Part shown: positions 1 through 55,877 of the stretch, piece by piece | Layout: every line of letters begins with the position of its first letter | Numbering within the stretch: position 1 is the stretch's first letter | DNA from: Octopus vulgaris | Taxonomy: Eukaryota | Assembly: GCA_951406725.2 (NCBI GenBank) | Contig: OX597815.1 | Location: 132,680,001 to 132,744,000 of the forward strand | Reading direction: 5' to 3' | Length of the DNA: 64,000 nucleotides | Position numbers and translations under genes: made by a program | Notes under the pieces: model-generated | Told to the model about the DNA's origin: nothing | The model's input: only the letters and a program-made list of their open reading frames with translations | The model's database searches: none

Positions 1-789
1 CATATACATACACAGAGATACATATTGTCTCGTGGTTACAGGAAAGTATACATACGAATGAGTGGGCTAACGAAAGAAACATTTGGGAAGAATTACATGT
101 ATTATTTAACAAACGTTTCACCCTGCTCCATGCATCTAAAACTCATTAAGTACCTAGAGAAGTGTGTGTGTGTGTATTTGTGTCTGTATGTTTGGCTGTT
201 TGTCTCTTCGTTTCCTTGTGTTAATATCTGCTTTTGTAAATACAATTCTAAGAGTATCTTTTTAATTGTATGATTGGCATATTAAATGAAGAGTTGAATT
301 TAAAATTAGTCCGATAGATAATTAAAAATGTCGTGATAAATTGTAATTGATGTTGAAATATACAAAATAATTATTGTAAATTTTATATCAAATTGTAATA
401 AACATATTTAGAAAGCGAAGCGTAGGATGTTAATAATTGAAAGGGTGATGTAAAATATATTATGAATATCAGATGTGGCTATGAAGAAAAAGGAAGAAAA
501 ATATATGATACGAATAAAAAAAAGGAACTTCTAATAAATAAGACAGCAAGTATATTTGAAAATATTACTAATTTTGGTGCAAGACTAACAATTTCGAGGG
601 GTGGTGCTTCATCATTAACATCGACTTCAATGTACGAATCGAAATTTATTTTTATTTAGCCCGTCAGGATGAACGGCATTGACCAGTATGAAATTCGAAA
701 CCAGTGAGTAAAGTGTTTGAAAACTGGTCGCTGAGCATTTTGTCTGGTGCGCTAACAATTCTGCCCGTCATCACCAGAACAACAACAAC

Positions 790-849
<60 letters not shown>
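790..849. repeat. (AAT)n microsatellite (one of many; others at ~1502-1636, 2184-2232, 2391-2484, 4604-4690, 32126-32190, 54347-54587 mixed ATT/ATC, 55878-55941, 56892-56957, 59140-59216, 60769-60814)
   Basis: Direct trinucleotide runs; source of the poly-I/N/Y ORFs in the track. Confidence 0.98.
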
Positions 850-850
850 C

Positions 851-1049
851 CTTCCTACAATAGGCACAAGGCCTGAAATTTAGGAGGTAGAGAGTCGATT
901 ACATCAGCCCCAGTACTCAACTGGTACTTAATTCATCGACCTCGTAAGCATGTAAGAATAAAGTCGACTTCGGCAGAATTTGAACTCAGAACGTAGCGAT
1001 GGGCGAAATATCGCTAAGCATTTCACCCGGCGCGCTAGCTTGCCGCCTT
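851..1049 (-). mobile_element. tRNA-derived SINE family 1
   Basis: Reverse complement of the repeated unit AAGGCGGCGAGCTGGCAGAAACGTTAGC...GAGTTCAAATTCCGCCGAGGTCGACTTTGCCTTTCATCCTTTCGGGGTCGATAAATTAAGTACCAG, which carries Pol III A/B-box-like motifs; a more decayed copy lies at ~575-770. Confidence 0.85.
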
Positions 1050-1062
1050 AAATTATTTCAAA

Positions 1063-1268
1063 TTTTTGCCACAACGGCAGCTTGGGGAACGTGTGGATGA
1101 GTCGATTACATCGAGCCCAGTCTTTAACTGGTACTTATTTTATCGACCCCGAAAGGATGAAAGTCAAAGTCGACCTCAGCCGAATTTGATCTCAGAACCT
1201 AGCGATGGACAAAATACCGATAAGCATTTCGCCCGGAGCGCTAACGATTCTGCCAGGACACCGCTTTA
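1063..1268 (-). mobile_element. tRNA-derived SINE family 1
   Basis: ACTGGTACTTATTTTATCGACCCCGAAAGGATGAAAGTCAAAGTCGACCTCAGCCGAATTTGATCTCAGAAC matches the other copies. Confidence 0.85.
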
Positions 1269-1296
1269 ATCACGATGATATTAATTATTATTATTT

Positions 1297-1502
1297 TTTC
1301 TACTCTAGGCCTTGAAAATTTAAGGGGAAGGGGCTAGTCGATTATATCTGCTCCAGTGCGTGACTGGTACTTATTTCATCGACACCGAAAGGATGAAAGC
1401 AAAGTCGATCTCGGTAGAATTTGAACTCATCGCGTAGCGACGGGCGTTATACTGCTAAGCATTTCGCCCAGCGTGCTAGCGGTTCTGGCAGCTTACCGCT
1501 TT
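1297..1502 (-). mobile_element. tRNA-derived SINE family 1
   Basis: Same diagnostic body as the neighbouring copies. Confidence 0.85.
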
Positions 1503-1540
1503 AATAATAATAATTATTATTAATAATAATAATTATTATT

Positions 1541-1614
<74 letters not shown>

Positions 1615-1635
1615 TAATAATAATAATAATAATAA

Positions 1636-2182
1636 TGCAGTACCAGGCAGTGGCTCCCATGGCTTCTGATCTTAACTGATTGGAAGTGTTATCATGTACA
1701 TTGTTTTGTCTTGGTATAAAAGATGGGCTACAGCAAATATTCTGCTCAATACCACAGATTTGCTTGTCAGTTGTTTGACCTTAACCATTTGAGCATGTCC
1801 CTTAGTGGCTGACGATATGTGCATCTCTAATCACGAGCAGAAGTAGTGGGGAAGCATCATAGCCATGTGTTGAGAGGGATTCTTTGGGGTTTGAATAATT
1901 CACCTCTGGAAACATGGGTGGTTCTTTCAACATCCTTAACCAACCCTTATTCAGGGACGTTTTGAGCAGGATGGGCTACTCAACCTGAAGAATTTTCTAA
2001 CTGGGCCCCACCTGCAAGGTCATGTGCTGTTCATCTTGATATGAGATCACCATGTCGCGCACATATGGTTGTGATGCATGTGCCTGGTGTACCCTTATCA
2101 GACGGGTAGTCATGATGGGTATATTGGGCTTCGTATATTTTACCCCAGTGTCACTTTGATTGCATGAACTGCTCACTCACTC

Positions 2183-2183
<1 letters not shown>
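1636..2183. mobile_element. ~550-bp non-coding interspersed repeat embedded in (AAT)n
   Basis: Recurs at 59217-60022 and as an internally deleted copy at 2233-2389; always next to (AAT)n. Confidence 0.8.
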
Positions 2184-2232
<49 letters not shown>

Positions 2233-2234
<2 letters not shown>

Positions 2235-2387
2235 GCCCTGATATAGTACCAGGCAGTGGTTCTCATGGATGTCCTGATACAGTATGGCTATGATGCATAT
2301 GCCTGGTGTACCATTATCAGACGGGTATACTGGGCTTCGTATAATTTACCCCGCTGTCACTTTGATGGCATGCACTGCTCTCTCACT

Positions 2388-2389
<2 letters not shown>
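2233..2389. mobile_element. Internally deleted copy of the 1636-2183 repeat
   Basis: Keeps the left end AGTACCAGGCAGTGG and the right end GTCACTTTGATGGCATGCACTGCTCTCTCACTCA. Confidence 0.8.
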
Positions 2390-2466
<77 letters not shown>

Positions 2467-2486
2467 TATAATAATAATAATAATCG

Positions 2487-2790
2487 TTTCTACTATAGGC
2501 ACAAGGGCCTGAATTTTGAGGGAGGGGCAGTCGATTAGATCTACCACAGTATGCAACTGGTAATTAATTTATTGCCTCCGTTAGGAAGAAAACTAAAGTC
2601 AGCCTCGGCGGAATTTGAACTCAGAATGTAGCGCCGGGCGAAATATCGCTAAGCATTTCGTCTGGTGCGCGAACGATTCTTGACACTTGGCCAGCAATTT
2701 CGTGGGAAGAGATAAGTCGATTATACCGTCCCCAGTGTTCAAGTGGTACTTATTTTATCGACCCTTAAAAATGAAAGGCAATGTCGTTCG
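2487..2790 (-). mobile_element. SINE family 1 copy plus an adjacent partial copy
   Basis: GGCACAAGG...CTCGGCGGAATTTGAACTCAGAATGTAGCG...GAAATATCGCTAAGCATTTCG, then a second TGGTACTTATTTTATCGACCC. Confidence 0.8.
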
Positions 2791-3392
2791 ACGATGGTAT
2801 ATAATATTCCCCGGAATGATTAAAGGTGCCGTAAAAGAGTCACCGCTGCACCCATCCACATTTAATTTGTTTCATGAGAAATTGCTTTAAGCTGGTTGAA
2901 TAATTACCTGTATAAAAAAAGCACGCACATATATGCATATGAATTTATCTTATAAAATAAAAATACAAAACATGTCTAATGGTCTCATATCCATATTCCA
3001 TAATTTTATATAGATTTCTACACATATAGTTGTCCAATGGTTTTCGTATCATTGTCTATATAGATCGATCATAAATGAAAACATGATTTAGTAAAGACGG
3101 GTTACATAAACATTTTGGAAACCTTTCTCACAAAAACTGTTATAAAACAGTTCTAAAAAACACTAAATAACATTTATATTCAGCCAACACATTCTTTTTA
3201 AAATTATCGCTTATATGTATATACTATGTACATTATACATTATTACATATAAATATGTACACATGCACACACACACACACACACACATACACACATTATA
3301 TATATATATATATATACATACATATATAAGTGTGTGTGTGTGTATGTATATACATATTTATGTACATATGTATTTATGTATATATATGTATG

Positions 3393-3480
<88 letters not shown>

Positions 3481-4601
3481 TGTATATATATATATATATA
3501 TATAAGAATTTACATTTTGATATATATTAGCAATGGACATCGATCGGCAAAGAGTAAAATCGATGTTTTACTAGAATCAATAAATATATAAATATTTTAC
3601 AAAAATCAGGTCAATAAATGCTATAAAATATCTCTAATACCATAAACATAACGTTTATATACACTAGAGTTTTATTTCCAATTTTTTTTTTTTTTTTCCA
3701 TTATATCATTTTTAATTTTTGGGGTCGTGGAAGTGGTACGTTTCATAAACGTACGTATTTCATCTTTGCGGTACCGACTAATAGGCTTCCATAATGCAGT
3801 TTAATAAATGCACATATGTGAATATGTATCTTCAATTTCGTTCCATGCTTAAGCTTATATAAAGATCGAAACTTCAACTTTATAATATTAAAAATTTGTA
3901 GAGTCTCTGCTCTTTCATAAACAAGTTAAGTCTGTAAAAGCCTCAAACATATATTGTGACGAGTAGCATATGTTTGCGTGTATAAGTGTGCGTATGTGTG
4001 TATGTGTGCGTGCGCGCAAAATACCACCACGACTGTCACAATCATATCACGGCCATTGTCAATCTATTACCATCATAATACCACGACCCTCAATATACGA
4101 TACTTACACTTCATCATACACACAAGCACGAAATCATGATTCTATTTTGTAAAACTACATAGAAACCACTTCCACTTAACGAAATATAAATGTATATTTT
4201 GTATTTGCATCATATTGTGATTCTTCAGTGTAGCTGAAGAGAGAAGTAAGTAATTAAAACCACTTTAATATCGAAACGCATCTATGGCTAATCGAAGACG
4301 TGTTGATTCATTGTTTTTCTCTTTGCCTACGTAAAAAAGTGTGTTACTGCCGTGGAGATTCTTACAGTAGTAGAAAACGAATTTTGAACTCCTATTTCTA
4401 AATTCGTATGTGCTGAAGCAATTAGCTGCCCCCTAATTATAATTATGTTTATAATTATAGAATATTCGTATAATTTTACCTATAACCCTTATTTTAACGT
4501 ACCGAGCTACTTGTTAAAATTATAAATTAATTGATTGACTAATTAATTAATTTAATTAATTAATTTTACCCTTTTATTATTAATTTGAAATTATATATGA
4601 A

Positions 4602-4662
<61 letters not shown>

Positions 4663-4732
4663 CATTATTATTATTATTATTATTATTATTAATTTGAAGT
4701 TATATATAAATTTTACCCTTTAATTATTAATT

Positions 4733-4778
<46 letters not shown>

Positions 4779-4783
<5 letters not shown>

Positions 4784-6470
4784 GCAGGTATATATACCTT
4801 GCATGCATACGTACATTCACACATACACATATACACACATACACGCATAAACACACATACATATGCATGTGCCTGGATGCACATACACACGAATATAATT
4901 AGATGGTTATGATACTCGAGTATGAGTGAGGAATTAGATAGGGATTAGGAATTCAAGTGTATATTTTTAAGGTTATTAGGATTACCTAAGGGGATTTGTG
5001 GCAATGTACTGTATGTGGAAATGTACTGTATGGTCGCTTAGGCGTTTAGATTTGTGGTAGAATTTGAATGTGTGAAAAAGTCGGGGGTTGCATGTGCTTA
5101 GTGCCTCATTATGTTTATTTAGCAGTGCTGGAGAGTTGAGCTTTAATATGTGAAGTATCTCCTTCGAGTAAGGTTTGCAGGTTGAACGTTGACTTCGGCA
5201 TTAAGCACATGCAACCACCGCTTTTTTCATACATTCAAATTCTACCACAATCCAAATGTCTAAACGACTATACAGTACATTTCCACAATACCCCTTAGGT
5301 AATCCCAATAACCTTATAAATCTACACTTTAACTCCTAATCCTTATCTAATTCCTCACTCATTCTCGATTATCACAACCATCTAATTACATTCGTGTGTA
5401 TGTGCATCCATGCATATGTGCGTGTGAATGTATGTGTGTGTATGCGTGTATGTACATATGTGTTTCTGTGTGAATGTACGTATGCATGCAAGGTATATAT
5501 ACCTGCGTGTACAGGGGCGATAATACATGCAGATACACGTACATAAGAGTGTGCATGTGCGCATATACATACGAGTAAGCGCTGTATATGCAGATATTGA
5601 TATGTATAAACATCTGTATAAATATATATATATATACATGTCTAATATATATATGTATACATATTCACATATATTTTTTCTTCTACTACTAAACACTGAC
5701 CTGTCCAACCACACAAATTCCTAAATCCTTCATTCCATACTACTACCCCTCTCTCTGCCTCATCACTTAGACTCTGTCACTGCACAATTGACAAACCTTT
5801 AATTGTTATACCTCTCTCTCTCTCTTTCACCCCTCCCATTCCTTCTATCTTTTTATACTCTAATACCTTTCCCACTCTATTTCCCTTATCTTCCCATTCT
5901 TACTTTCAAATTATCTTGACAGACCACTTACTTGTTCCCTTACTTCATTCCTCTCTTCTTGTTCTTTCTTCTTTTCTTATTATTTTATTATTTTCTTCTT
6001 ATTTTCAATTCTTTCTTTTCTCTTTTTTTTCTCTTTCTTTATTCCTCTCTTCCACTTTTCGATTTGACCCTACGAATACATTCCCTACTTTTAGGTCACT
6101 TTAAATAAAACCCTTGATTCAGTAACACTGGGTATAAACTCAATACATGAAATAACCAATTTTAAATACTATAGGATTTTACTCATAAGGTATCGTAATC
6201 TTATATGTATACCATTCTGCCTAAATAATGGATATACAAATACAATATCCCTGCATATCTCACATCTATTTTCATTCCTCCACCTCACTCTCTATTTTGT
6301 ATCATATCTAAATTAACTATCACTTAACCGTCTTTTCACACCGTCTCCGATGAAGGGATATAATAAATATCCTAGAAACAGCTGTAAGATCTATTTATAA
6401 ATGTTCCAAAATCTACACACCCTTGGTTTTTTTAATCTCATTACGGAAAAAAATTATATACATATATATA
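4779..6470 (+). mobile_element. Penelope-like element 3' remnant with an inverted 5' copy and a 3' hammerhead
   Basis: ~320-bp inverted repeat (4779-5105 / 5197-5512). The minus strand of the spacer and left arm reads CKPYSKEILHILKLNSPALLNKHNEALSTCNPRLFHTFKFYH, resembling the PLE GIY-YIG C-terminus. Hammerhead at 6343-6390; flanked by (TA)n. Confidence 0.7.
6343..6390 (+). ncRNA. Minimal type-I hammerhead ribozyme motif (U4C variant)
   Basis: GTCT-CCGATGA-A-GGGATA taataaa TATCCT-A-GAA-ACAGCTGT-A-AGAT: stem I GTCT/AGAT, stem II 6 bp, palindromic stem III, GUA site. Confidence 0.65.
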
Positions 6471-6489
6471 TAATAAATGTGACCGCGTG

Positions 6490-6676
6490 CGTACCGTTGG
6501 CGATTTTTTTTTCCTCTGTCTTCCCTTCTCTGGATCTTTTCTTCTATGTTTCCGACGAAGAGCTCCGCTCGAAACGTTAAACCCTCTTTCTTTCTTTCTT
6601 TCCTGAGCGTCCAATAATACTATATTTGTTCCACGTCCTCGCGTTGTTGTGTTTTTTTGTGTTTTCTTGTTTGGAT

Positions 6677-6680
<4 letters not shown>
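6490..6680 (+). mobile_element. Short hammerhead-bearing repeat (PLE pseudo-LTR-like)
   Basis: Homologous to 14250-14430 on the minus strand; ends in (TA)n. Confidence 0.65.
6548..6582 (+). ncRNA. Minimal type-I hammerhead ribozyme motif (U4C variant)
   Basis: GTTT-CCGACGA-A-GAGC tcc GCTC-GAA-ACGT-T-AAAC: stem I 4 bp, stem II 4 bp, palindromic ACGT stem III. Confidence 0.7.
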
Positions 6681-6719
<39 letters not shown>

Positions 6720-7611
6720 GTAGTCGCCATGATAGACCGCTAACTTCAAAAGTTATTTTATTCTCTCTCAGTTTATTTCTTCGTGTTCCTTTCTGTTGAA
6801 GAGCGTATGCTTGAGACATAAACGACTTTCTCACCCTCCTGAGCGTCAAACTAATACACCTGCTTGTGTTTATACACCTGTCTTCGTCTTTTGTTTTTCT
6901 GTAAATTCCAACTATATATACATATGGGGGTGGGGTATATATGCATTTATATTCATATATATATGTATGTATGTATATATGTATGCATAAATGAAGAGAG
7001 ATTGGGAAATAGAAATTTGAGACATACATATCTGCCTATATATATATACAGACGCGCATATCACACTAACACGCACACACACACACGGACAGAAAACCAC
7101 ACGCACATACTCACATATACGCACACACATATATATACATACATAGATCGGCGTAAGATAGTATGGAGCAAGCATCACGCTACAATAAAAATCAATGAAT
7201 TTCTATAGATATAATACATGTTGACAAATCATGTAAATATTATATTAATATTAGTATACAGCAAGCAACGCAAAATAGTAAAAAATGTTGGATGTATTTT
7301 AATGTCATCTGACATTTCATGGAACAGCATAGATTACGTAGCAAGAATCAAAGTGAAATAAATCTAAAAGAAACAAAAAAAAATGAATAAATCATTTGCA
7401 TAAGTGTTCATTTATCATCAACAAGACCAAGGAAATCAATTACTTTTCTAAGTATCTGCCATATTGCCTGCAAACAATAAATCAAACGCAATACACTCAG
7501 AAGCCAATTTCTGAAACACAATATTCTAAAAATGCCTTCATTATATACATATCTGTATGCGTGTGTGCGCGCGCTCGTGTGTGTGTGTGATTGTGCATGT
7601 GTGTGCCTGTG

Positions 7612-7689
<78 letters not shown>

Positions 7690-10332
7690 TATGTATGTAT
7701 GTATACGTTTGAATGTCTTTTTATATCACGTTTTATACAAAGTCCCAAGAAGTTTTTATTGCAGTCCTGCACAATAACAGTTCGTGACTGCCTTTCTGTC
7801 TGACAAAAAGAAGGAATATGTCTAAATTTTAAGCCTTGATAAACAGCTTTTCATGAATTCTTTACAACTGACTGGTTAATCTGATATTACTGCTAACCGG
7901 ATCTCTAAGTTCTCAGCCCTCGTTTTACCTGCCTCGGTCTGTAGAGCCGCCTGAAACTGGTTTTAAAGTAATAAGAAACCTTAAACACTAGAATGGGCAT
8001 CTAACATCCACGAAGATTATTTTAATCTTGTTAGATATCATCATTTAAATCTTGAAGCAATGCATAGACATATCTTATAAGACACCTGGACTACATTTTA
8101 ATACCAATAACAATACCATTCCTTTCATGTAGAGGCAGCAATTTAAGTGGACAAGAACGTGAACTTCATTGGTTACTCTTACTTTTGATTATGTCTGTCT
8201 TTCAAACATTAAAAAATTCTAGCGGTTTTGCGACATCAATGCATGATACTAAAAGATCTGCGCTGCGTGTCATCTCAAGATCACATTTTATACATATTAA
8301 CAGTTACAGAGTTAGCTTCTTTAGACTTGGCTGTCGTTTTTATGGCATTTCACATTTCAAAAATAATTTCTTTCTTCTTTTCTGTAACTGGAAATTGAGA
8401 ATTATTTTCTTTTCTTACGTTAAGCACAGTCATGTGAAACTCGACGATTTTATCTTATATTCTAAGCATTATTTTCGCATTCATTTTTCTCGCATTGACG
8501 TCGATATTATTTCGGCACAAAAGTTTAAAGCACCATGATCCTCTAAAGCCTTCTTTATCTCTATGCGTTGTTTCAAGATTTGAATGACAAATATTAATCT
8601 TGGTGGATATTGAACCGCCAACAATAATTTTTTCCCTTGTGTTTCATTTTTCCACCTCGAAAATCAATTGTCATTTCGTTTAAAATGCGGCTACTGAAGT
8701 GAATACACTTGTAGAAATTTCGTATTATTTGCCTTTTCACGCGCTTGCTATCAAACCCCAATTTTTGGAAACGTTTTCGGCATTTCTATATTTCTTACAC
8801 GAATTTGGCTTAAACGATATTCTAAAATCATCATATAATAATTTACTATATTTTAATACTTTCATTTTTTTATTTATTATACATTAATGGAAAGAATGAT
8901 ACAATCGTGTCTTAAAATGCATACGTGGTCTACCGTATCATGTTTAGAATGTTGGAACTTATTCAGTTAACGTATCAGCTCTGTCTAGACTGTTGTGTCG
9001 CAGTGTATGCAGTGTTTGTTCTGTGTGCATGGCTAATTATTCCATATTTCGATGGCGTAATTATTCCATATTTTCTCTGTTTAGGAGTATGTTTATTGGG
9101 CTTTTTTTTCCTTCAGAAAATTGTACACCTTTTATGACTGCAAGGAATATTTCTGATAGTGAAAGGAATGGCACTCTTCAGAAAAAGTAATTGAAATCCA
9201 CATTCTATGAGAGAAAAGTTTGTAGCACCATGAAAACTTTCCTTCCTCGTTAGAAATGAGTAAAAGAAGCGAAATAAAGAGTATTGTAAGCTAGGGGCTT
9301 AAGACAGAGTAAATGGCATGAATATACAGACAGGTACTACATAAAAAAGACGCGAAAGAAGGAATATAATGAGCTAGGGGGTATGGATTTGAGGGTAGAA
9401 TCTCATGGATCGTATGGTGGTTATATACACTGTGTGTATGTATGTGCATGTGTGCGTGTGTACGCACACACATACACACACACAGTACACATAAACATCA
9501 CTCCAGCCATGCCATCTCACCTGCAAATCTGCACACGTTGCATATGAACATCCACGTGAGTATACATATGCACGCGAGCACAAAGAAGCGCGCGCACACA
9601 CCACACACGCTCGCACGCACACGCGCACTCACTAGCGCGCGCACAAGCACAAACACACTCAGACGCACACACAAACACACACACGCAAACACACACACGC
9701 GCAATCACACACACACGCAAAGACACACAAACGCAAACAACACACAAATATATACACGTACATACACACTGACGTACGCGAACTTACACACACATACAAC
9801 ACACATGCACATACATATTTACACACAATCGCGCATATGCGGACACAGGATCATATGCTCACAAGCCTCTCAGATTTCACGCCCAGATCCTCTGTCACCA
9901 CCAATTTCCTGTCCAACCACGGTGCCAAAGAAAATATGCTTTTCTCATGTAACTGATGTCCTTAGGAAACAATACTATCTACTGTGACATCAGGTGACCC
10001 TCCTTGACTAATTGTAGCTATTCAACTTGGACTTCTTCTGCAATTTTGTTCACTTGAACTTTCTGCCAGCCTGAATTGACAGGTTCCGTAAAGGGCCAAC
10101 AAAATGTTTTATCATTCAAACTGTTTTGAATAATACCTGTGGCTCCCAATGAATGTGTTGCCTGCCCTTACTTTTGTTTGACTACACACTCATATATATG
10201 TGTGTATATATGTATATATATATATATATATATATTTATTTATTTATTTATATAATAAAATATTAGGGAATAAATCCAAACTTACAGGGAAAAATCAGAT
10301 TTAGGATTAAATCCAATTTTATAGTAAAATAT

Positions 10333-23903: not shown

Positions 23904-24398
23904 TATCATACGGATGTCTTATAAAACTATTTCGCACGTGCAATAACAGCAATACAACAACCAACACAACTCCATCATCAGCTGCTCCACGGATATCGCT
24001 ATGGTTTCGACATCTGGGCAGTAACATTCAATCCGGTGGTTTCACCAGCACTAAAATAAGTGTAGTTTGGGAACAACCATACCTTAGATATCACCACATT
24101 CATTCAATCTTAATTCTAGGAAGAATTAAATACAAACATTAATAATTAAACTACAGCAAAGAAAACACATTTACCCTATGTACGAAAACAGTATCGGTAA
24201 ATTAATAATTCTATAAGTAAACTTATAACTATATAAGATGGGCTTCTTTCAGTTTTCGTCTACCAAATCCACTCACAATGCTTTGATCGACCCGAGGCTA
24301 TAGTAGATGACACTTGCCCAAGGTGCCATGCAGCGGGACTGAACCCGGCACCATGTGGTCGGGAAGCAAGCTTCTTACCACACTGCCACTTCTGCGCC
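23645..24398 (-). mobile_element. SINE family 2, split at its (TA)n linker by an unrelated ~330-bp insert
   Basis: Tail part 23645-23850 and head part 24238-24398 match 12092-12492. Confidence 0.8.
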
Positions 24399-29417: not shown

Positions 29418-29618
29418 TCAAATTAGAAATATTACATTTCTAAATCTCTCAGAGAGATTTATACAGTAGTAGCACGATAAAGTGAAGATTTATTGCCAAC
29501 TTAATGTGCCAGTCCCAGGAAAGGGGAAAATGCTACTGCTAATTATGACACAAGCGTTCTGTGTCCTTATGTTTTCAAAGAAGGGAGATGGGCACCTCCA
29601 CCCAGCAAAGCCAGCATG

Positions 29619-29657
29619 CAGAGACTAGTTTCAGAGTCATTGTTCATCATCAGTCTG
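29619..29657 (-). ncRNA. Hammerhead motif
   Basis: Minus strand: CAGA-CTGATGA-TGAACAATGACTCT-GAA-ACTAGT-C-TCTG; canonical core, GUC site, palindromic stem III; stem II is weak in this copy. Confidence 0.72.
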
Positions 29658-29678
29658 GAGTAGCGTGACTTCCTAGCT

Positions 29679-31458
29679 TAATTCTTTATTATCGGCACAA
29701 GGCCTAATTATAGAGGGGACATACAAAGACATGCGGGAACATAAAACATATGAAGGATGATTCGCTCCCGCTGCGAGATGAAACCGTGTATTCCTTTAGT
29801 ATAACTATTACACAACGCCTAGCCTCGCTCCGAGGCGAAACTTCCCCTTTTCGCTTTCGCCCTATAATTACACCTTTAAACAAATGTTCAAACAGAATTT
29901 ACTTCTTATTTTTCCTTCTTTTTTTTTTAAACTAAAGTCAACCAAATGTATATCGCATTATTTTTTTAGAAACATTTTGGAAACCTATTCATTCGACACT
30001 TGCAAAATGACTTGATTTTCCTTTTTTTTTTCTTTTTTCAAATAAATATTTTCTGAGTTAAAGTCTTTTCAAAATGTATCGACTTACCTCTTGTCTCTCA
30101 CAATGTCTTTCATTCTTACACTCATTTACGTTGGGGTATCCTATCTCACTACGATTTTCCTTTTGTTTGTGTTTTGCCTATTGTCTCTTTTTGTTTCTAT
30201 TTTCCTGCTGCTTTGTGAGTTCTTGTATATTCGTCTCTAAGTCTGTGTGTTCGCGTTTTTGTGTGCCTTTGTGTTCGTTTGACTGTAACTCTACGTGTTT
30301 CGTCTGTGTGTCTATGTTTTTAGGCTTCATTACTTCTGAGTTGTCTTGTTTCTGGCCTGCATGACTCTGTCCTTTTAATTCCTTTGCTGGTACTTCCTCT
30401 GGTAAATTTTCTCCATTTCTCGTCGTGGGGTTGAGTTTCTTCTATTCCTTTACATTTCTTCACTTCCACTATCGTCGGTGACTTTCTTCTTTCTCTTTTC
30501 CGTGGTTTTACCTCCGCCAAATTGCCATCATATTCTGTTCTCTGCTTCTGCTTTTTCCCACCACTGTATCTCCCTGCACACTCTCTTCCACCATTTCTAC
30601 TGCTGATCTAGGGCATTTCCTTCTCAGGTGCCCTCTTTCACCGCATCCGTAACATTTTGGGGATCTCCCCTCCAACATTACTCCCAGTTTTTCACCGTTT
30701 GGTAATTCCACAGTATCCGCCATTTCCTCGTAATACTCTGGGCTTACCGCACAAATTACTTCAATTCCATATCCCCAGCAATTCAATTGTTGAGTTCTGC
30801 TTATTATTCAAATCTCCAGGTTTTCACTTCCATTCACCAGCTCTGAATTAAACATTGCGACTATTACTCATTCTTGGTATGTCGACGGTGGGATTCTTCC
30901 CGCCCTGAGCCTGACGATTCTTTTGCCTAAACAGTTCGGCATTAACGTCCATTTTTCTAGAATTATCAGCCTGTTGTCGTTTACTTTTGCCTCCTCTTCT
31001 GTTGCAAAGGTAACTATTACTGTCGTATATTCCCTTCCTCTTGTAAAGAAAGTTATCACTTCACCTATTTATTCCTTCAATATTTCCTCTATCTCTTCCT
31101 GCGGCGCGTGTTCTATTCTCCTATTTTCATTCGCAAATTTCTGAATATCACCGTCCTACTTTCCAATTTTCTTTTTTCCTCCATTAGCAGGGTCCTTTTT
31201 ATGTTTAATCCTTCTTTCTTTTACATGCAATAATGTTTTGAAAGCTTCTCCTCATCCCACTCCTTCCACTTCGGCTTCAGCACACGTGGGTCTATAGCAT
31301 CTCGACCTCCAGTTGCTTCAGCACACGTGGGTCTATAGCATCTCGACCACCAGTGACTTCCGCGTGACATTTCATTTCCATTATTCACTTCCACCCAACG
31401 ATGGACAGAAATCTCGCACAAAAATCTCGCTTCGAATTTTCCACAAAACAACAAAAAG
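29679..31458 (-). mobile_element. ORF1/gag-only non-LTR-like element (decayed)
   Basis: Fragmented ORF with the CCHC knuckle CYGCGERGHLRRKC (30508-30786), AATAAA at the 3' end, degenerate TSD, no RT; 41-bp tandem duplication at 31274-31355. Confidence 0.75.
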
Positions 31459-31896
31459 GTGAGGCTTGGTAGCTGTCGATGCTTATTCAACTTAGAAAAC
31501 ATATAGATTTCAAGTGAAATACATTCACTGATCTGCAAAATTAGAAATATTACATTTCTAAATCCCTCAGAGAGATTCATTCAGTAGCAAACCATCACAT
31601 TATCGTGCTGTGTGTGAGTATATGTTTCCGATATACATATATGTTTTGTTTGCGTGTGTTGAGTTCGTACGTGTGTCTGTGCGAGCATAAGTGATCCATC
31701 ATATAATACACTGAATGGCATTATACTTTGTGTCACAATACCATTACACCAATGATTACTTAACCATTTAAAACTATGGATCGGAGGAATAAATCATCAC
31801 GTGACAGTACCAGAAATTTTGCGTCACGTGAGTCGGCCACTAAAATTTTCTTAAAGACAACTCATTTTCAGTAGAAAGCTAATATAATGTTGATTA

Positions 31897-42767: not shown

Positions 42768-42908
42768 CGACGGGTTTCTTTCAGTTTCCATCTACTAAAT
42801 CCACTCACAAGGCTTTAGTCGGCCCGATGCTACAGCAGAAGACACTTACCGAAGGTGCCATACAGTGGGACTGAATCCGGAACCATCTGATTGGGAAGCA
42901 AGCTTCTT

Positions 42909-45003
42909 TATTTCATTAAATTAGCCATAAAGGCCTTACACAGAGAAAAATGAAGCTGCGGGCCGGACAAAGACATTAATGAGATGAGATGAATGATGAA
43001 CAGGATGGTATTAATTGGGGAAGGCAAAGGACGCGCCACCGATCACTGCTTCCTCAATCCATTGTTTTTTTTTCCTTTTTACAAAGCAAAAATCACAGAA
43101 ACGAGGTAATTAGCCTCTCATCTTAGTTCCATAATATTGCACAAACTAAAGCACTGAGCCTCTTACCAACAAAGAATACTTTACAAAAAGGAGGCATTAC
43201 GTCACTTACTTTGTAAAACAGAATAAGGTTTCAAACCCCTCATCAATTCATTACACTGAGTCTTTTCAACTTCTTATTCATATTCCTCCCCAGCATCGCT
43301 TGTGACCACATATTCCGCCATCACCCATGCCTGATTCAAACACAAAGCGGGTGATTGTCGGCGGCGTCTAGCCAAAAGCGATATTCCTCATTGAACCCCT
43401 CCAGCCAACGCAACACGCGCAACGTTTTGACCTCCACAGCTATCTGCAGATGCCATTCGGGATCCCGTGTGCATGTTAAAGTTACTCCCTTATGGTGCTA
43501 TTTCAGCACCTTCTACAACTGTCCGCCTCTGTAGAAGAAGACCAATAATTCATCTTTTTCCGGGGACAAGATAGTCACTTCTCAACTGAGAGAGGGTACG
43601 TCTCCTCTGTGACTGGGAGATTCGCCTGCCCTCCCTCATCCCTAGCACCCATTTTACTCACCTTCTTCCTCTGGCGGCCCTTTTGTGAGGAGTCTTCCGC
43701 CTCCTCGGCTGCCTTCGTTCCCTCTTTTACAGAGGTCTCAACCAACTGCTCCAGGACCTTACTTTGTTCCTAGAGACCGTTTCTCTTTATATGGCCAGGC
43801 TCCAGGCACCGATGAAACCTGGGGAGGGCACCCTCAAGAATCACCGAATACCTATAACCGACCATTTAAAAAAATCTGGAAATACCAGATTCTTGGCTGA
43901 TTGGATCCACAGAGTCAAAACCGCTTTTGATCCTATCCAATCAGCCGCAGGCAAAATTTTCACAATGAGGAGCTTGGCTCCGCTGCCACCCAGACCCCGG
44001 CGGATAGTCTCATCTATCCACTCGGGTTCTATCCCGGTTGGCAACCCGCAAACGTAAGCTCTCGTCAACTTCTTCCCGCAATACGTGGGAAGAAACAAAA
44101 TTTTATTGCCCTCCAGAGGCTGGCTCGCAAAAATGCGAGCCTTTTCCTGAGTGTCAAATAGCAACCAAAGGGTTACATATCTGACACCCCGTGCAATAAA
44201 TTTTACGTTTGATAAATGTTCTTTTAATTCTTTTTCAATTATTTCTTGGGAGAACACGACGATGGCGTCGCGAATCTTCGAATATGTTCTCAACACCACC
44301 ATCTTCTCCTTTTGCTGTGTAATCCATTCCTTGCGTGGGGCAATCTCCCACTCCAAGATATTTCCTTTCGCCATGCTTTTTTTAAAAACGTCCCCACAAC
44401 AGTTCAAAGTAAAAACGGAAGGCAAAAACATAAATAAAAACAAAAAAAAAACAGTCAGAAAGAAGACAAGGGAAAAAACAAAACAGAAAGGACAGGAAAA
44501 ACTGAAAAAAAAAACCAATTTAGCACGACTGCAGTTCTTCAGGTTATGCAAGTTCAAATCACAGCTCGTTTTACAAAATTGTTTTCGGCCAACCGGTACT
44601 GCAGGCCCTTGTATTTCCAAAAGGTACTCCAATAGAGTCAGGAACACGGTAGCAGTAAAGAATATTTTACCATGAAATGGTAACTGCACAAGAAGAAAAA
44701 AAATTTTCCACAAGAGAAAAAAATTCCACAATTTATGGCGCAGAGGATCCGCTCACCAAAACAATTCACTTAAAAGTGAACAAATTTTGCCCAACTGTAG
44801 GCAGACCAGAGTTCAGAATCCAGTGAGGACTTCTTATTTGTACAAAAAATAATTACAGTAATCCCCACTGGACCCCCCCCCAAAAAAGTCTTACCTTACA
44901 GCTGAGCTTCTGTTTTAATCAATATTTCGCCAGCTGCACACCAGCATGGCTACTTCTTTCAGTGCTACGAACAACACTGACAATACGCATGCGCGGTAGC
45001 ATA
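42909..45003 (-). mobile_element. ORF1/gag-only non-LTR-like element with a perfect 16-bp TSD
   Basis: TSD GGGAAGCAAGCTTCTT at 42893-42908 and 45004-45019; 2095 bp; ORF1-like protein; AATAAA at the 3' junction; no RT. Confidence 0.85.
43770..44374 (-). pseudogene. gag/ORF1-like protein, frameshifted before a decayed zinc knuckle
   Basis: MAKGNILEWE...QEIIEKELKE...FIARGVRYVT...LPTYCGKK..., then in another frame ILEGALPRFHRCLEPGHIKRNG; aligns by eye with the 30508-31130 protein. Confidence 0.7.
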
Positions 45004-45602
45004 GGGAAGCAAGCTTCTTACCACACAGCCATTGCAATTTGCAATATTTCACCAAAAAGGAGAATTACAAATGTCACTGAATGCGACCAGGATGTTAGGA
45101 AACATCAACGTTGCTAGAATTAAGACCGGCACTTTTCAGACGATTGTGGTCCTTGTTAGCGTATGTTTTCGTTCATGTACGTTAACTACACATTAAAGCG
45201 GTTTAGCAATTATTTCTAGAAATGTAGGTGTTTCCTAACACTCTGGTCGTATATAGCTTAGTGGTTAGGGAGAATCCATTGTTATTGTTGTTGTTGTTGT
45301 TGTTATTGTTACATGTGTAAAGAGAGAGGGGGGAAGAGAGAGAGAGAGAAGTAGCAACGTTATGCATAAAAACTATTGATTTAGCGGTTTCATTTCTTCT
45401 AGGAATTCGTCATGATTACTCCCCGGAAAGGGGTAAATAGATATGGTTTTGCCAAATTCTGAGCGCCATCTTTTACTTATTAAATCTTTACAACACTTCT
45501 GACAACCTATGCACACACACACACACACAAACAAACATATACACACACATACAAACATACACACACACACACACACAAACATACACACACACACACAAAC
45601 AT

Positions 45603-45835: not shown

Positions 45836-47087
45836 GCCTTTAGTCGAACAAGTCGACCTCTGGACTTATTCTTTGTACGCTTTGCATTTATTATATCGGT
45901 TTCTTTTGCCGAACCGCTAAGTTACTGGAACATAAACACACCAACATCGGCTTTAAAGCGATAGCAGGAGGACAAACATATAGACACAAATACACACATA
46001 TATTTTTTAATGGAAGTCTGTCGGGTTCGACAATGACGTCAGTGACGCCGGAGGTGGGAGCGGAACCCAAAGGCGAACGCGCAGACATGGCTGCATGTTG
46101 GGCACATAAAAGCAGAAGTAGGGTTGGAGATCCTCTCTTTTCGGGCTTGTGGTTTCTGATCCAGGCTCTTGAGGCGCTCTTCTTCGAACAGCCTAACACC
46201 CTTTTGGACAGCTGGACGCCAGGCGCCGCAGTCAGAGGCAAGCGATTCCCAGTCACGCCGCAAGCCTCAATGGAAGTTTTCAGGCTGTCCTTGTATCGCC
46301 TCAGTAGCCTTCCAGGTTTTCTTGCTCCAGAAGCCAGCTCAGAGAAGATCATCTTTGGTAGACGCGCGTCGTCTATTCGGACTACATGCCCGACCCACAG
46401 GAGCTAGGCCTTCATGATGTGGGCTTCGATCCCGGGCATTTCAGCTCTGCGAAGCACCTCAATGTTAGAGACTCTGTTCTCGCAGGAAATTCCCATGGTT
46501 TGTCGCAAGCAGCGGACGTGGAACTGGTCAAGTACTCGTATTTGCCTCCTATACAGCATCCACGTCCCACAGTCGTATAGCAGAGAGGTGATGACAACTG
46601 CCCTATAGACTGCAAGCTTGGTGGAAAGTCTGATGCCTCGTTCGGCCCACACACGTGTCCGAAGGCTTTTGCTGCTTCTGCGAGACAAGTGGCAAGTTCT
46701 TGCAGGTTTGGTTCATTCAATGCTGCACGCGCAATATCGTCTGCAAACAGGAAGTCTCATACTAGGGCGTCCAGGACTTTGGTTTTTGCTTTCAGACGTC
46801 TGAGGTCAAAGAATCGGTGTCACATATGTAGCGAATAGTGACACCAACAGCAGATTCTTGACAAGGCGTGGAAGAGCATGGTGAAAAACATGAGGTTGAA
46901 GAGTGGGGGAGCCATATATATATACACGACAGGATTCTTTCAGTTTCTGTGTACCAAATCCATACACAAGGCTTTGGTCGGCCCGAAGCTATAGTAGAGG
47001 ACACTTACACAAGGTGCCACGTAGTGGGACCGGACCCGGAACCATGTGGCTGCTAAGCAAGCTACTTACCACACAGCCACGCCTGCG
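45835..47087 (-). mobile_element. SINE family 2 split at its (TA)n linker by an RTE fragment
   Basis: Tail 45835-45995 and head 46925-47087. Confidence 0.8.
46005..46910 (-). mobile_element. RTE-clade LINE 3' fragment (pseudogenised)
   Basis: LRTRVWAERGIRLSTKLAVYRAVVITSLLY...WVGHVVR...RYKDSLK...CPTCSHVC...SHLRRH (C-terminal C2H2 finger). Confidence 0.92.
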
Positions 47088-50084: not shown

Positions 50085-51870
50085 AACAAAGGTTTATTGT
50101 GAGAATTTTTTCAAATGGCTGTATGTTAATGAGGCTCGCTTAGGAACCACCTGGTTTTTAAGAGTTGGTCTCTGCATTCATATGAGCCTCATCGGTACCC
50201 TTTTTGTTCAGTGGGAAAAATATCGTTCTAATCCATAAATTTGTGTTTTCTCCACGAGGATGGATGTTCAAATTTTATACGTGATAGATAGGTATGTTAT
50301 GGGAAGATAGTTTTGGGGAAATTTGGTTTCCTTAGTCTTCGGTAGTGGGTAAGTAATATCTCTTGCTAACCAATCGTGTTTTCGTAGGATCTCTCATAAT
50401 TCCCTTGAATAACAGAACGAACTTTTCGTGTGCGCACGGGAGCGATGCGAGCCAGAGATTTGGCATCCTGCCATTACCAGCGGATTTCCACTTATGAGTC
50501 TTCGTAAGTGTCATCCTTAGGTCTGTTATTGGATGTCTTCCCATGCTTGTTCCAGTAAGATTTTGTAGGATCCTTTTCTGCGTCTAAACCAGTCAGCATT
50601 TTCACTGTATATCTTTTCATCACTCCAGATATTTTCCCAAAGGTTTTCAACTTCTTCCAGGGGAATGAGATCTTAAACGGTTATTTTCTCCTTCCCTAAT
50701 TCCCTGTAGAATGTTTTCGCATTGGATTTGAACAGCTTATTTTGATTGCAAAACATTTTTCTCTTTTCAAATCTTATTCTTTTAACTTTCGCTTAAACAT
50801 TTTGTTGCAGTGTTTCTTTTGTTGTAAGCAATTCTTCTCTTGGTGAGAATTTATGCTTTCTTCTTCTCCTTTTTTTTTTTTGAGGATTTTACATTGTTTC
50901 CACAGATCAGTTCATTCAATAATGACGTTTCACCTCTCATTATTTCAGTCTCTTTTTCAATGTTAGTTTTCCAATTTGGAATCCTTCTCAAGTTTGTGTT
51001 TCTTTGTTTAATCAGAAATATACAACTGATTTCAGTTGTCTTTGCAGCTGCGTAAATAATTTCGTTTAACTCAGTGGGAACTCGTTCTTGTATGATTTCT
51101 TTTGTTAGTTTCCAATTTTAATTTGTTTTCTATTTTGGATTGTATTTGAGCGTTTATTAAGTGGTTCTCTATCATGCAGATTGGCGTAACTTACAGCTGC
51201 AAGCTTATTCAGGAGTTTCTGCTTCATTTCTATCATAGACTCTCTATGTTCTTCAGTAAAGGTGCAGTTTTCAAATATTGTTTCTTTACCACTTACCTCG
51301 CTATCTTTACCAGGTTCATTACAATTTATTTATTCAGATGTTTGCGTGTTTCCGTGACTTTCAATTGAGACTCGTAGAAAGTTGCTCTCGTCGTCTAGTT
51401 CCTTTTCCGCTGCGTGCTTGATAGCGGTTATTTCACTATCTGTGAGTCTTTTATTTCCTCTTAATATTTGCTAACTCGTTTTCGTCCAAATATTGTCTGC
51501 TGTCTTGATTTCGTGTTCTTCATATTTGATAAGAGTGTGCAGTGTGTTTCTCTTCAGATGGCCTGCATAATGCATCGTAATAGGCGTATAATACTTCTGT
51601 ATACTCTTCTCATGTCCATTTGATCCTCTTACATTTTCTCTCTGTGGTGGGTGTGATGGTGAACTTGGATGGTTCGAGTTGGGGCAGTTTCTTTTCAAGT
51701 GACCATCCAAGTACGTATTCAAAGAAGAGTTTGTGCCAGTGGATAACTTTTTGACCCGAGGCTGGCTCTCTCTCTCTCTCTCACTTGGGAGACGTTCTTC
51801 CAAATTAACCACAGGACAAGCGATTTGGTGTACTGTTGTAGTTTTCCTTTTCGTTTCGTAAGACATATTT
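50085..51870 (-). pseudogene. R4/Dong-like (RLE) LINE 5' half
   Basis: HKWKSAGNGRMPNLWL, LPKT...NYLPITYLSITYKI, EQKGY..GSYECRDQLL: RT domains 0-2 of RLE-clade elements. Confidence 0.8.
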
Positions 51871-52465: not shown

Positions 52466-54345
52466 TAGAACTTAGATAAAACTTAGAAATGTTTCGACCA
52501 AAGATTGGTCCAGGTCATGTCTAACTTAATAGCACCGCCTGATAGGATTATCTAAATCCTGTTTAAGTCAAGTTTTGTTTATGGTCCATTTAAATAGTGA
52601 GTTCTTGTTGAGTGAGTTGTATCCAGGTATGGGTGGCTTATCCGGTATTCCTTGAAGGAATCTGTCCAGACTCCGTTTAAAGGTGATGGGATCCTTTTCC
52701 TCTTTGAACTGTTTCGAGACAATGTTAAACAGGGCAGGGCATGTTGAGGAAAATAAATTATGTCGCAGTGTACCTATATGTTGTGATCCTGAATTGGGCA
52801 GGGGACGTATAGCCTGTCGTCCCAGCCTTGGATGAACCTTGAAACTAATGTTCAGGTCGGTTGGGCAATGCTAGCGGTATATTCTCCACAGCGTACAAAT
52901 GATGTACCGCTTGCGGCGGCGCTGGAGAGAATAGAGTTTCACGGCTTTAAGGCGGTCCCAATAATCGAGATCAGTCATGCCTTCATTTCGTTTAGTGAGT
53001 GTGCTCTGGGGTGATTCAATACTCGAGATGTTTTGTTTTGTATGGGGAGACCATAAGGGGCAGTACAAAGGGGGAGAAAAGTGGAATGATTTCACCTTTT
53101 CTCTGGACCAAAAGGTTCTTAAGATCCAGGAGCTCATCCTATGAGCTATATCGATCTTATTGAGATTGTTATGTACAATTACACCCAGGTCTCTGATACT
53201 ATTAGATGCCGTGAGCGGTTCACCTGAAGGAAGAAAATATGGTTGTTTTAGTATAGACTTCCAAAATACATCAGATCAAATTTTCCCTCGTTCAGTTGCA
53301 TTTTGCTTTAGTCTGCCCATTGACTCACAGTTGAGTTCGGTCTTCTTCATTGATGATTTGCTGGAGCATAGTGTCATCAGCAAATATTTTCTCTTTGCAG
53401 TGATTTACGACGCTGGAAAGGTCATTTATGTAAATTATAAAGAGGAGCGGGCCCAAGACATTCCCTTGAGGGACACCACAGGGGACTTTTGCTGGGCTTG
53501 AGTGGACTCCATCGACCACAACATGTTGCGTTCTAGTCACCAGGAAATATTTAATCCAGTGTAGAAGTTTTCCACAGATTCCAACATTTGCCAATTTTGA
53601 GAGTAGGATATTATGGTCAACCCTGTCGAACGCTTTACTGAAGTCAAGTTATATGACATCAGAGTTCGAACCTGTTCCCAAGGCTTTAAGTATATATTCG
53701 ATGTTGTGTAAGAGCTGTGTTAGACAGTCCCTTCCACAGCGAAAGCCATGCTGATTTGCATTTAGGAGATTGTGGGTCTCCAGGAAGTCAGCTATCCTTG
53801 ATCTTACCACTCTTTCAAACACATTAATGATGTGGGAGGTGAGTGAGACTGGACGAAATTTGAATGCGAGAGATCTTGTTTCCCTGTTTGAAAACCGGGG
53901 AGACAGACTGTTGTAGGAGCTGTTTCGGTATATAACCTGAGTCTAAAGAATTTCTCCAGAGGTTGGTCAGAGGGACTGCAAGTTTGTGTCTATATTCCTT
54001 CAGGAGACTAGCGGGGAATTTATCAGGCCCTACAGCAGAATAGTATTTGACCTCACTTATTGCTGCTATGATGTCAGAGGCAGTGAAGGTTATGTCCGAG
54101 ATTTTATGTTGGGAATCAACTTCGTTCGCTTCTCTTACGTCAATATCAGTGGGCTCACTAAAAACAGAGCAGTATTGTTTCTGCAGTATTTCTGCCATTT
54201 CTTTAGCATCGTGTTGGGGAATGCCGTTATCATCGATCAATGGCCCAATGGGTGATACAGCGGTTCTATGCTTATTTGCATAACAATAGAATACTTTCGT
54301 GTTCTGTTTGATATTTTGATTACCCACTGTTCCTCCGCAGCTCTT
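52462..54345 (-). mobile_element. CR1-like LINE, 5'-truncated, RT domain decayed
   Basis: AVGPDKFP...PVFKQG, DFSKAFDRVDH, GVPQGNVLGPLLFIIYINDL, FADDT, YWDRLKAVKLYSLQRRR; tail TTCTAAGTT repeats abutting (TA)n. Confidence 0.92.
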
Positions 54346-54352
54346 TATTATC

Positions 54353-54769: not shown

Positions 54770-55460
54770 CTTTGCTTAACTTCTAACACTGGAAATATAC
54801 TGCGGTGTCAGCTGGTCAATACCAACGAACTGAGGTATCACACTATATTTTCTGTGTACCCTCCGAAGTAGTCAAACTGTTCCAAGCAGTGCTGTTTTCT
54901 GTAAGCGCTCCGCCTGTATTTGTTTTATATACTTCAAAAGATCCTTTTTTACTGTTCCTAAGGCTCCGAAAGTTATTGGTATTACTATCACCTTTTTCAG
55001 CAACCATAACAATTTAGCCTCCGTAACTAACCTGTCATAACTATCGATTTTTTGCTTCTTAAATGCATACCTTGTTGTCAGCTGGGCATGCTATATCCAT
55101 TATCCAGCACTGTTTGATTTCTTTCTCAATTATCACAATATCTTGCATCCTATTCTGTGTCTCATCGACACACTGAATCATAAGGTCCCACAGGATTTTT
55201 GCATTATCATTTTCGATCATTTATATTTATACTACTTTTCTTCTCTCACAAGTCCATAGATGTTGCTAAGTTCTCAATGGACTATCCATGCTATGCTTTC
55301 ATGTCGCCTCTTATATTCTTTGTCGGCTAGTGCTGTACATTGTTAATAAGCTATATAGTTTTCCCAGCATCTCCACAAATTCTGCAATGTCTGTCCTGTG
55401 TTTGGCGTAATTAGCTCTTGACGAAATTAGCTCTTAATGTTTACTCTTGAGCCACACGGA
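54770..55460 (-). mobile_element. R4/Dong-like LINE 3' fragment (CCHC + RLE)
   Basis: Minus strand CRICGDAG..., YKRRHESIAWIVH, KILWDLMIQC...QDIVII...CWIMDIACP. Confidence 0.75.
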
Positions 55461-55877
55461 TTTATTATTATTATCATCATCATCATCATCATCATCATTA
55501 TTATTATTGTTATTGTTCCCATTTATCATAGGTTTTGTTGAAACTATTGGAGTAGCGGGTTTGCTACCTGCAGCCTGCGGTCCCATGCTATGCGTTCTTT
55601 TCAGCTATCAAATAATTTCGTGATTGTTCTGGCCAGTACAGCTGGTTGATGTCAGCTTTCGGAGACTCCATAATTCGTCAACAGATTTCTAGATTTCTGC
55701 CAAATTTTTCTAATTTGTTTTTGGTCTAGTAAACAATTCCAATTCCATATGCTCTTGCAATTATTCCTGCAATAACGTTTTTTCCAATTCAGCTTTGACT
55801 GCAATAATCTTATTACTCTCTTTGTATACTTTCTACTGATAATTTGTTTTATTTTTTATGTTTTATTTCATCTGCTG

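Follow-up and report, generated by a model that had tools for sequence, protein, structure and literature searches.

The window analysed here, a stretch of 64 kb from Octopus vulgaris, carries on its minus strand a 2,095-bp insert (42909-45003) bounded by an exact 16-bp target-site duplication (TSD), GGGAAGCAAGCTTCTT, which a motif search of the 64-kb window places at 42893-42908 and 45004-45019. The insert contains a leader, the broken remains of a LINE-type ORF1 and a 3' region, and it interrupts a SINE. These features, together with two other elements of the window that bear on its interpretation, are as follows.

45020-45031, minus: 5' end of the host SINE head, including the A-box-like motif; ~10 nt at its very beginning are absent or diverged (from alignment to the three intact copies)
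45004-45019, minus: TSD on the 5' side of the element (exact match)
44375-45003, minus: leader, 629 nt, T-rich (40% T) (composition and contig depth)
43844-44374, minus: N-terminal piece of ORF1, 177 aa, with two predicted RRM domains (homology and fold model)
43578-43874, minus: middle of ORF1 in a second frame, with a decayed CCHC knuckle (~43820-43775) and a charged linker (protein alignment)
43336-43497, minus: probable C-terminal piece of ORF1, 53 aa, in a third frame (well represented among paralogs)
42909-43335, minus: 3' region, 427 nt, ending AATA without poly(A) (sequence and contig depth)
42893-42908, minus: TSD on the 3' side of the element (exact match)
42769-42892, minus: 3' part of the host SINE with the B-box-like motif and body, to a (TA)n/(TG)n tract (alignment to intact copies)
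29470-31537, minus: second, distant ORF1-only unit of ~2.07 kb, 11 kb away (tblastn of homologs)
52500-54350, minus: 5'-truncated, decayed LINE with RVT_1 matches at 53328-53942 (Pfam)

An insertion inside a SINE head

The window holds four copies of the host SINE, three of them intact, and alignment to these three shows the fourth split at the TSD with the 16-mer doubled. Insert and host SINE have the same orientation, both on the minus strand. Since a third exact copy of the 16-mer lies within an uninterrupted SINE (24361-24376), the duplicated sequence is the SINE's own target sequence; with up to three mismatches allowed, the window contains five matches against 0.25 expected. In the interrupted copy (45020-45045) the head begins without the ~10 nt that open it in the three intact copies.

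A-like and B-like boxes are visible in the head when the window copies are aligned, and the TSD begins directly after the A-box-like motif. An earlier note on this DNA had placed the insertion in the anticodon arm of a tRNA-derived SINE. By our own placing of the boxes the TSD would span the 3' side of the D-arm to the anticodon loop. A tRNA was called neither by ARAGORN in the whole 64-kb window nor by Rfam in the SINE copy at 24.2 kb. The tRNA origin of the host SINE therefore rests on the A- and B-like boxes and on the literature, octopus SINEs being described in the accessible part of PMC8967140 as mainly tRNA-Core and tRNA-Deu.

The overall dimensions given in that note, an exact 16-bp TSD around 2,095 bp and a leader of ~630 nt (629 nt up to the ATG at 44374), were reproduced. 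At the 3' end it had the insert finish at AATAAA without a poly(A) tail: the tail is indeed absent, but the hexamer straddles the junction, AATA being the end of the insert and the last AA belonging to the TSD. Besides the TSD, no terminal direct or inverted repeat of the insert occurs among the 25 longest of 32 repeat pairs, and neither insert end has significant RNA structure (z 0.74 and -1.30). The insert thus has the marks of a non-LTR (TPRT) insertion, namely a TSD in the range of ~10-20 bp, no LTR or TIR, and 5'-truncated copies, which are described below.

A broken ORF1 and no pol

The ORF1 region covers 1,039 nt (44374-43336) and contains at least two frame changes as well as in-frame stops. 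After the 177-aa piece the frame switches near 43865-43875; the knuckle lies in the next frame and has lost two of its three Cys, and the final piece stops at 43336. The insert is a dead copy. Contigs from public sequencing runs show that most other copies have the Cys codons at 43816 and 43778 that the window copy lacks. The ORF1 differences of the window copy fall at codon positions 1, 2 and 3 in the ratio 9/8/5 (22 classified of 26 ORF1 rows, four of unsure frame being left out, within 40 of 649 difference rows), a pattern such as neutral decay would give.

A phmmer search of 1.84 billion representatives returned 17 matches to ORF1, one at 71% identity and 16 at 20-33%. The best, P0001 (O. 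sinensis XP_029652367, LOC115225585), is 71% identical to the N-terminal piece, and its alignment to the window runs in two frames with the switch near 43865-43875. Seven of the 17, whose names were examined, are gene models from Octopus species (O. sinensis, O. vulgaris, O. bimaculoides); nine are Logan records without a name, and P0014 makes up the named remainder. Three accessions annotate P0001 as a host gene, and some such elements are included among host genes annotated as 'uncharacterized'. Like the window copy, P0001 has Phe at the first knuckle Cys; it has no C-terminal piece.

Pfam gave nothing credible in the ORF1 pieces; zf-CCHC was found in one of the 17 homologs, and the knuckle is also visible in aligned full-length rows. 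In the ESM Atlas, ORF1 fell with unnamed eukaryotic clusters (0.90-0.93), with leads to RRM_1, DUF4780 and PRE_C2HC below 0.9. Structure prediction had been proposed in the earlier note as a check on its reading. The AlphaFold2 model, built from an 18-row alignment (A1) with P0001 (71% identical) as first row, has two tandem alpha/beta RRM-like domains at residues ~17-99 and ~104-185, within a block of pLDDT 71-97 over residues 11-190 that is followed by a low-confidence tail. The top Foldseek matches of this model are tandem-RRM proteins (hnRNP A1, E 3.4e-5), and VIA structure comparison returned RRMs for both domains at Z 7-8, a middling value when taken alone, including the La RRM (Z 8.0, rmsd 2.8, 79 aligned) and U2AF65 RRM1 (Z 7.9, rmsd 2.3, 72 aligned). 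No capsid fold is among the listed structure matches, and the confident part of the model is RRM-like. ORF1 is predicted to be a type I LINE ORF1p, with two RRMs and then a CCHC knuckle, and not a capsid; the decayed knuckle of the earlier note holds, and its 'gag' is, on this model, to be understood as a LINE ORF1. Type I ORF1p (RRM and CCHC) is linked to the Tx1 group in non-mammalian animals in the portion of PMC5203782 available to us. The insert shares this ORF1 type with the Tx1 clade, but other clades have it as well, hence it is not sufficient alone to place the element.

The 53-aa C-terminal piece ends DNHPLCV and is among the most covered parts in four of four public runs (61-83 contigs at 43448). 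It matched no Pfam family, gave no usable ESM Atlas match, and its single-sequence model is of low confidence (pLDDT 47.7). It is possibly an unnamed module of ORF1.

A CCHC knuckle is common to gag proteins, which together with the host-gene annotation of P0001 and the poly(A)-signal-like hexamer at the end of the insert might suggest a gag-only element of LTR origin or else a processed copy of an RNA-binding gene, whether a host gene or a domesticated one. We regard either as very improbable. The insert has neither the long terminal repeats nor the 4-6-bp TSD of LTR/ERV gag-only elements, the only long direct repeat at its ends being the 16-bp TSD. The model gives RRM folds, and the many paralogs at ~82-85% identity, along with distant subfamilies at 20-33%, fit a transposable element and not one gene.

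The insert contains no Pfam family in any of six frames, with stops read as X, and no YxDD or APE-type motif, which upholds the earlier statement that RT and endonuclease motifs are absent. Neither Pfam nor a motif scan found an ORF2 remnant in the 427-nt 3' region. A word-index search of longer proteins, weak by the tool's own note, gave no ORF1-ORF2 fused protein; a weak search for proteins of near length returned only two already known ones, and no loci related to the element were found in metagenome or viral contigs. Tx1 families are placed by their RT; the element has none and no partner ORF2 was recovered, so that we infer its clade.

Among the 64 of 197 window ORFs (at least 70 aa) that were scanned, Pfam RT matches occur only at 53328-53942. 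The LINE in question, which we take from its motifs to be CR1/L2-like, was set aside as a partner. Other decayed LINE remnants lie on the minus strand nearby: an ORF2 C-terminal fragment between two SINEs (45890-46900; no Pfam match), presumably RTE-like by its motifs, and two coding fragments at 54800-55700 and 50600-51800, whose motifs we take to resemble R4/Dong-type LINEs, in their C-terminal nuclease part and their N-terminal part.

A multi-copy family with a probable recurrent landing site

We aligned contigs from four of 13 listed public runs, one per organism code, at a likeness cut-off of 80%. ORF1 is clearly multi-copy: in run X1 the window copy's own contigs have depths of 55-76, and ORF1 bins reach summed depths of 900-61,600, although depth is not copy number. 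Outside ORF1 the depth is uneven. The first ~240 nt of the leader are multi-copy (summed depth 2,000-5,100 at 44768-44931 in X1), as are 43210-43335 and 42964-43045 in the 3' region (2,100-3,500 at 43210-43373 and 2,700 at 42964-43045), whereas the leader core (44358-44767) and 43046-43209 stay near single-copy depth (75-250). All four runs have the same depth shape. Among paralogous pieces, the longest diverge by ~15-20%. Single-depth contigs 96-99% identical to the window copy occur in runs X2 and X6, and one of them (X2 record 9) spans 42986-43457 gap-free with 8 differences in 472. These are likely the orthologous insertion and not independent copies; on that reading the ORF1-only layout is older than the split between those organisms, which provide no independent replicate of it.

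The depth profile bears on the main alternative, in which the family is an autonomous, SINE-preferring Tx1-type LINE with ORF1 and ORF2, and the window copy lost ORF2 once, through an internal deletion at the time of insertion or later, and never amplified in this form. The single-copy depth at 43046-43209 in four of four runs marks where a private deletion junction could lie, and no paralog bridges the ORF1 stop to the 3' tail among the listed contigs. O. vulgaris does have autonomous L1-Tx1 families, of 5.4 kb on average, and for this species the accessible part of PMC13282606 reports 13 recently active L1-Tx1 families with 421 copies in 2.29 Mb, also candidate partners, and 5'-truncated copies at the SINE site could stem from an autonomous element. 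However, the leader drops to single-copy depth as well (44358-44767), so the dip in the 3' region may be nothing more than non-coding sequence that has diverged past the 80% cut-off. The ~125 nt past the ORF1 stop remain multi-copy and contain no APE motif, the 427-nt 3' region yielded no ORF2 remnant and, more weakly, the protein search no fusion. Also weakly, as depth is not copy number, ORF1 and the 5' end are not depleted relative to the 3' end, unlike in a 5'-truncating LINE of 5-6 kb. Given also a second ORF1-only unit of the same size but an unrelated subfamily in the same 64 kb, we consider a single loss of ORF2 possible but the less likely account.

This second unit has its ORF1 at ~31381-30060, with 25-30% aa identity to that of the insert, in-frame stops and an intact CCHC knuckle; in its three sense frames Pfam matched neither RT nor endonuclease. 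It sits outside any SINE, between 50-bp direct repeats (29420-29469 and 31538-31587) that are 94% identical and 2,118 bp apart, an unusual length for a TSD. The unit speaks for an ORF1-only layout of ~2 kb that recurs. Contigs of 1,849-1,930 bp carry four members of the P0009 cluster (309-384 aa), a size that fits this layout, though weakly, since such contigs are short anyway. The second unit also has a 41-bp tandem duplication in the start of ORF1 (31274-31355) and two AATAAA-like ends ~200 bp apart, which might reflect 3' transduction. A 3' tail motif shared by the two units was considered and rejected, as 252 of 1,704 windows score as high.

The contigs of the public runs add at least four junctions at the SINE position that the window copy occupies, immediately 3' of the A box; two are of full-length type and two 5'-truncated. 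In one X1 joint (42991 to 45007) the 3' portion of the element passes straight to the SINE with four extra SINE-like letters; in the other (43015 to 45005) 39 letters intervene, 24 of which can be matched by eye to the following 40 nt of the element. With depths of 78 and 88 the two joints are single-copy, and we interpret them as copies of ~83 and ~145 nt truncated on the 5' side. One 5' end is paralogous, differing at 29 letters and having gaps at 17 positions; it reaches the TSD in X1 record 8 and continues 7 nt beyond it in X3 record 24. A variant 5' end shorter by 8 nt (at 44995) is found in four of four runs.

For 500-10,000 random insertions, and assuming four SINE sites per 64 kb, one exact position and strand would be expected to be hit 0.02-0.3 times. 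Only junctions with the SINE could appear as joints, insertions elsewhere appearing solely as loose ends, so the count has no denominator to set beside the published criterion for target preference in Tx1 elements, more than 20% of flanks in one repeat (accessible part of PMC4494074). Empty sites prevail among the SINE copies: at 42908, 710 loose ends of X1 continue as SINE. Because the further junctions sit at the same SINE site, it is likely that the element prefers this position in the SINE head.

A shared site could also reflect descent, if one chimera of SINE and element had been duplicated or retrocopied as a unit; all of the extra junctions were found through the SINE flank, with the outer flanks outside view. 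Against this, the junctions differ in offset (45005, 45007 with the four extra letters, and 45004), and differences in truncation point (~83 nt, ~145 nt and full length) and in SINE allele fit separate insertions. We therefore hold descent to be improbable.

A proposed mode of mobilisation and its known relatives

We consider the insert a probable member of a non-autonomous, HAL1-like and Tx1-derived ORF1-only family mobilised in trans. The earlier note's half-LINE family moved in trans is partly borne out, in its non-LTR origin, its ORF1, predicted as type I, the absence of pol from this copy, its multi-copy family and a repeated SINE site; an ORF1-only family is favoured by indirect evidence, and movement in trans itself is held as probable. 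The joint reading, an ORF1-only family mobilised in trans by a Tx1/L1-type partner and also preferring the SINE-head site, we favour with some reserve; it is rated no lower because its two parts are partly linked.

On this proposal, the leader would drive a ~2.1-kb transcript and ORF1p would coat its own RNA. Directly 3' of the A box, the partner endonuclease would nick the SINE at 5'-CTTCTT/ACC-3', where a run of pyrimidines meets a purine in a manner that we take to be like L1-type sites. The T-rich primer would then pair with the A-rich RNA end through at least 2 nt of junction microhomology, with poly(A) not kept, and a second nick 15-17 nt away would give the TSD. TPRT chemistry underlies these steps. 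Pairing of the primer with an A-rich RNA end would explain both the missing poly(A) and the shared AA. Insertion places 2.1 kb between the two promoter boxes, A and B, and would silence that SINE copy.

A broader and more tentative possibility, which we hold to be rather unlikely as a whole, is that Octopus hosts an old, diversified lineage of ~2-kb ORF1-only elements (subfamilies at 25-30%) without an ORF2 of its own, keeping a coding ORF1 and a conserved C-terminal module, one subfamily of which homes on the most abundant SINE of the genome, into the gap separating its A and B boxes. If true, a LINE parasite would use, and disable, another parasite as its landing pad.

Confirmation of the main reading, an ORF1-only family with a preferred SINE site, would widen the range of ORF1-only LINE parasites, which includes HAL1 in mammals and HeT-A in flies, by a Tx1-type lineage of molluscs, add the SINE head to the list of sequence-specific targets, and point to a natural endonuclease reading a defined 16-bp site. 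The question why a non-autonomous element keeps ORF1 could then be put to the test by comparing dN/dS between distant subfamilies. Having no RT, such elements would escape repeat classifiers that rely on it.

Each ingredient of the main reading is known, and the combination was not found in the literature searched. Full-text searches gave no ORF1-only Tx1 family or SINE-head-targeted LINE in cephalopods, of which repeat libraries may hold a consensus, and the accessible parts of PMC8967140, PMC9115989 and PMC4758252 describe none. Target-preferring LINEs of the Tx1 clade include Tx1L in Tx1D, Keno in U2, Tx1-Mar in Mariner-N4_AMi and Tx1-9_AMi in Harbingers, and SINEU, a SINE passenger with an snRNA-derived head, shares the Tx1 target preference (PMC4494074, as far as accessible). 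As in these cases, the octopus element, a probable non-autonomous passenger, likely prefers a fixed position in another repeat, and it has, by prediction, the type I ORF1 of Tx1 families. Unlike SINEU, the putative octopus passenger keeps ORF1, and it lies in a tRNA-type SINE head, a kind of target absent from those described for Tx1 elements in the accessible part of PMC4494074.

HeT-A and other telomeric elements of the Jockey clade likewise belong to families that lost ORF2 and kept ORF1, as did ~40% of drosophilid telomeric TE families according to the portion of PMC13534243 available. However, elements of the HeT-A type form head-to-tail telomeric arrays without TSD, whereas the octopus copy is single and interstitial and has a TSD. 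HAL1, described in the accessible part of PMC5753468 as a mammalian non-autonomous LINE derivative that encodes only ORF1p and arose several times, shares with the window copy the presence of ORF1 and the absence of ORF2. Its ORF1 is that of mammalian L1, type II, with a coiled coil, one RRM and a CTD, in contrast to the type I ORF1 predicted in octopus with two RRMs and a CCHC knuckle, and it has a poly(A) tail where the octopus insert has none. The hosts also differ, mammals for HAL1 and a cephalopod here, and the octopus element appears to prefer a specific site. The octopus element works like HAL1 but stands outside it by its ORF1 type and its tail.
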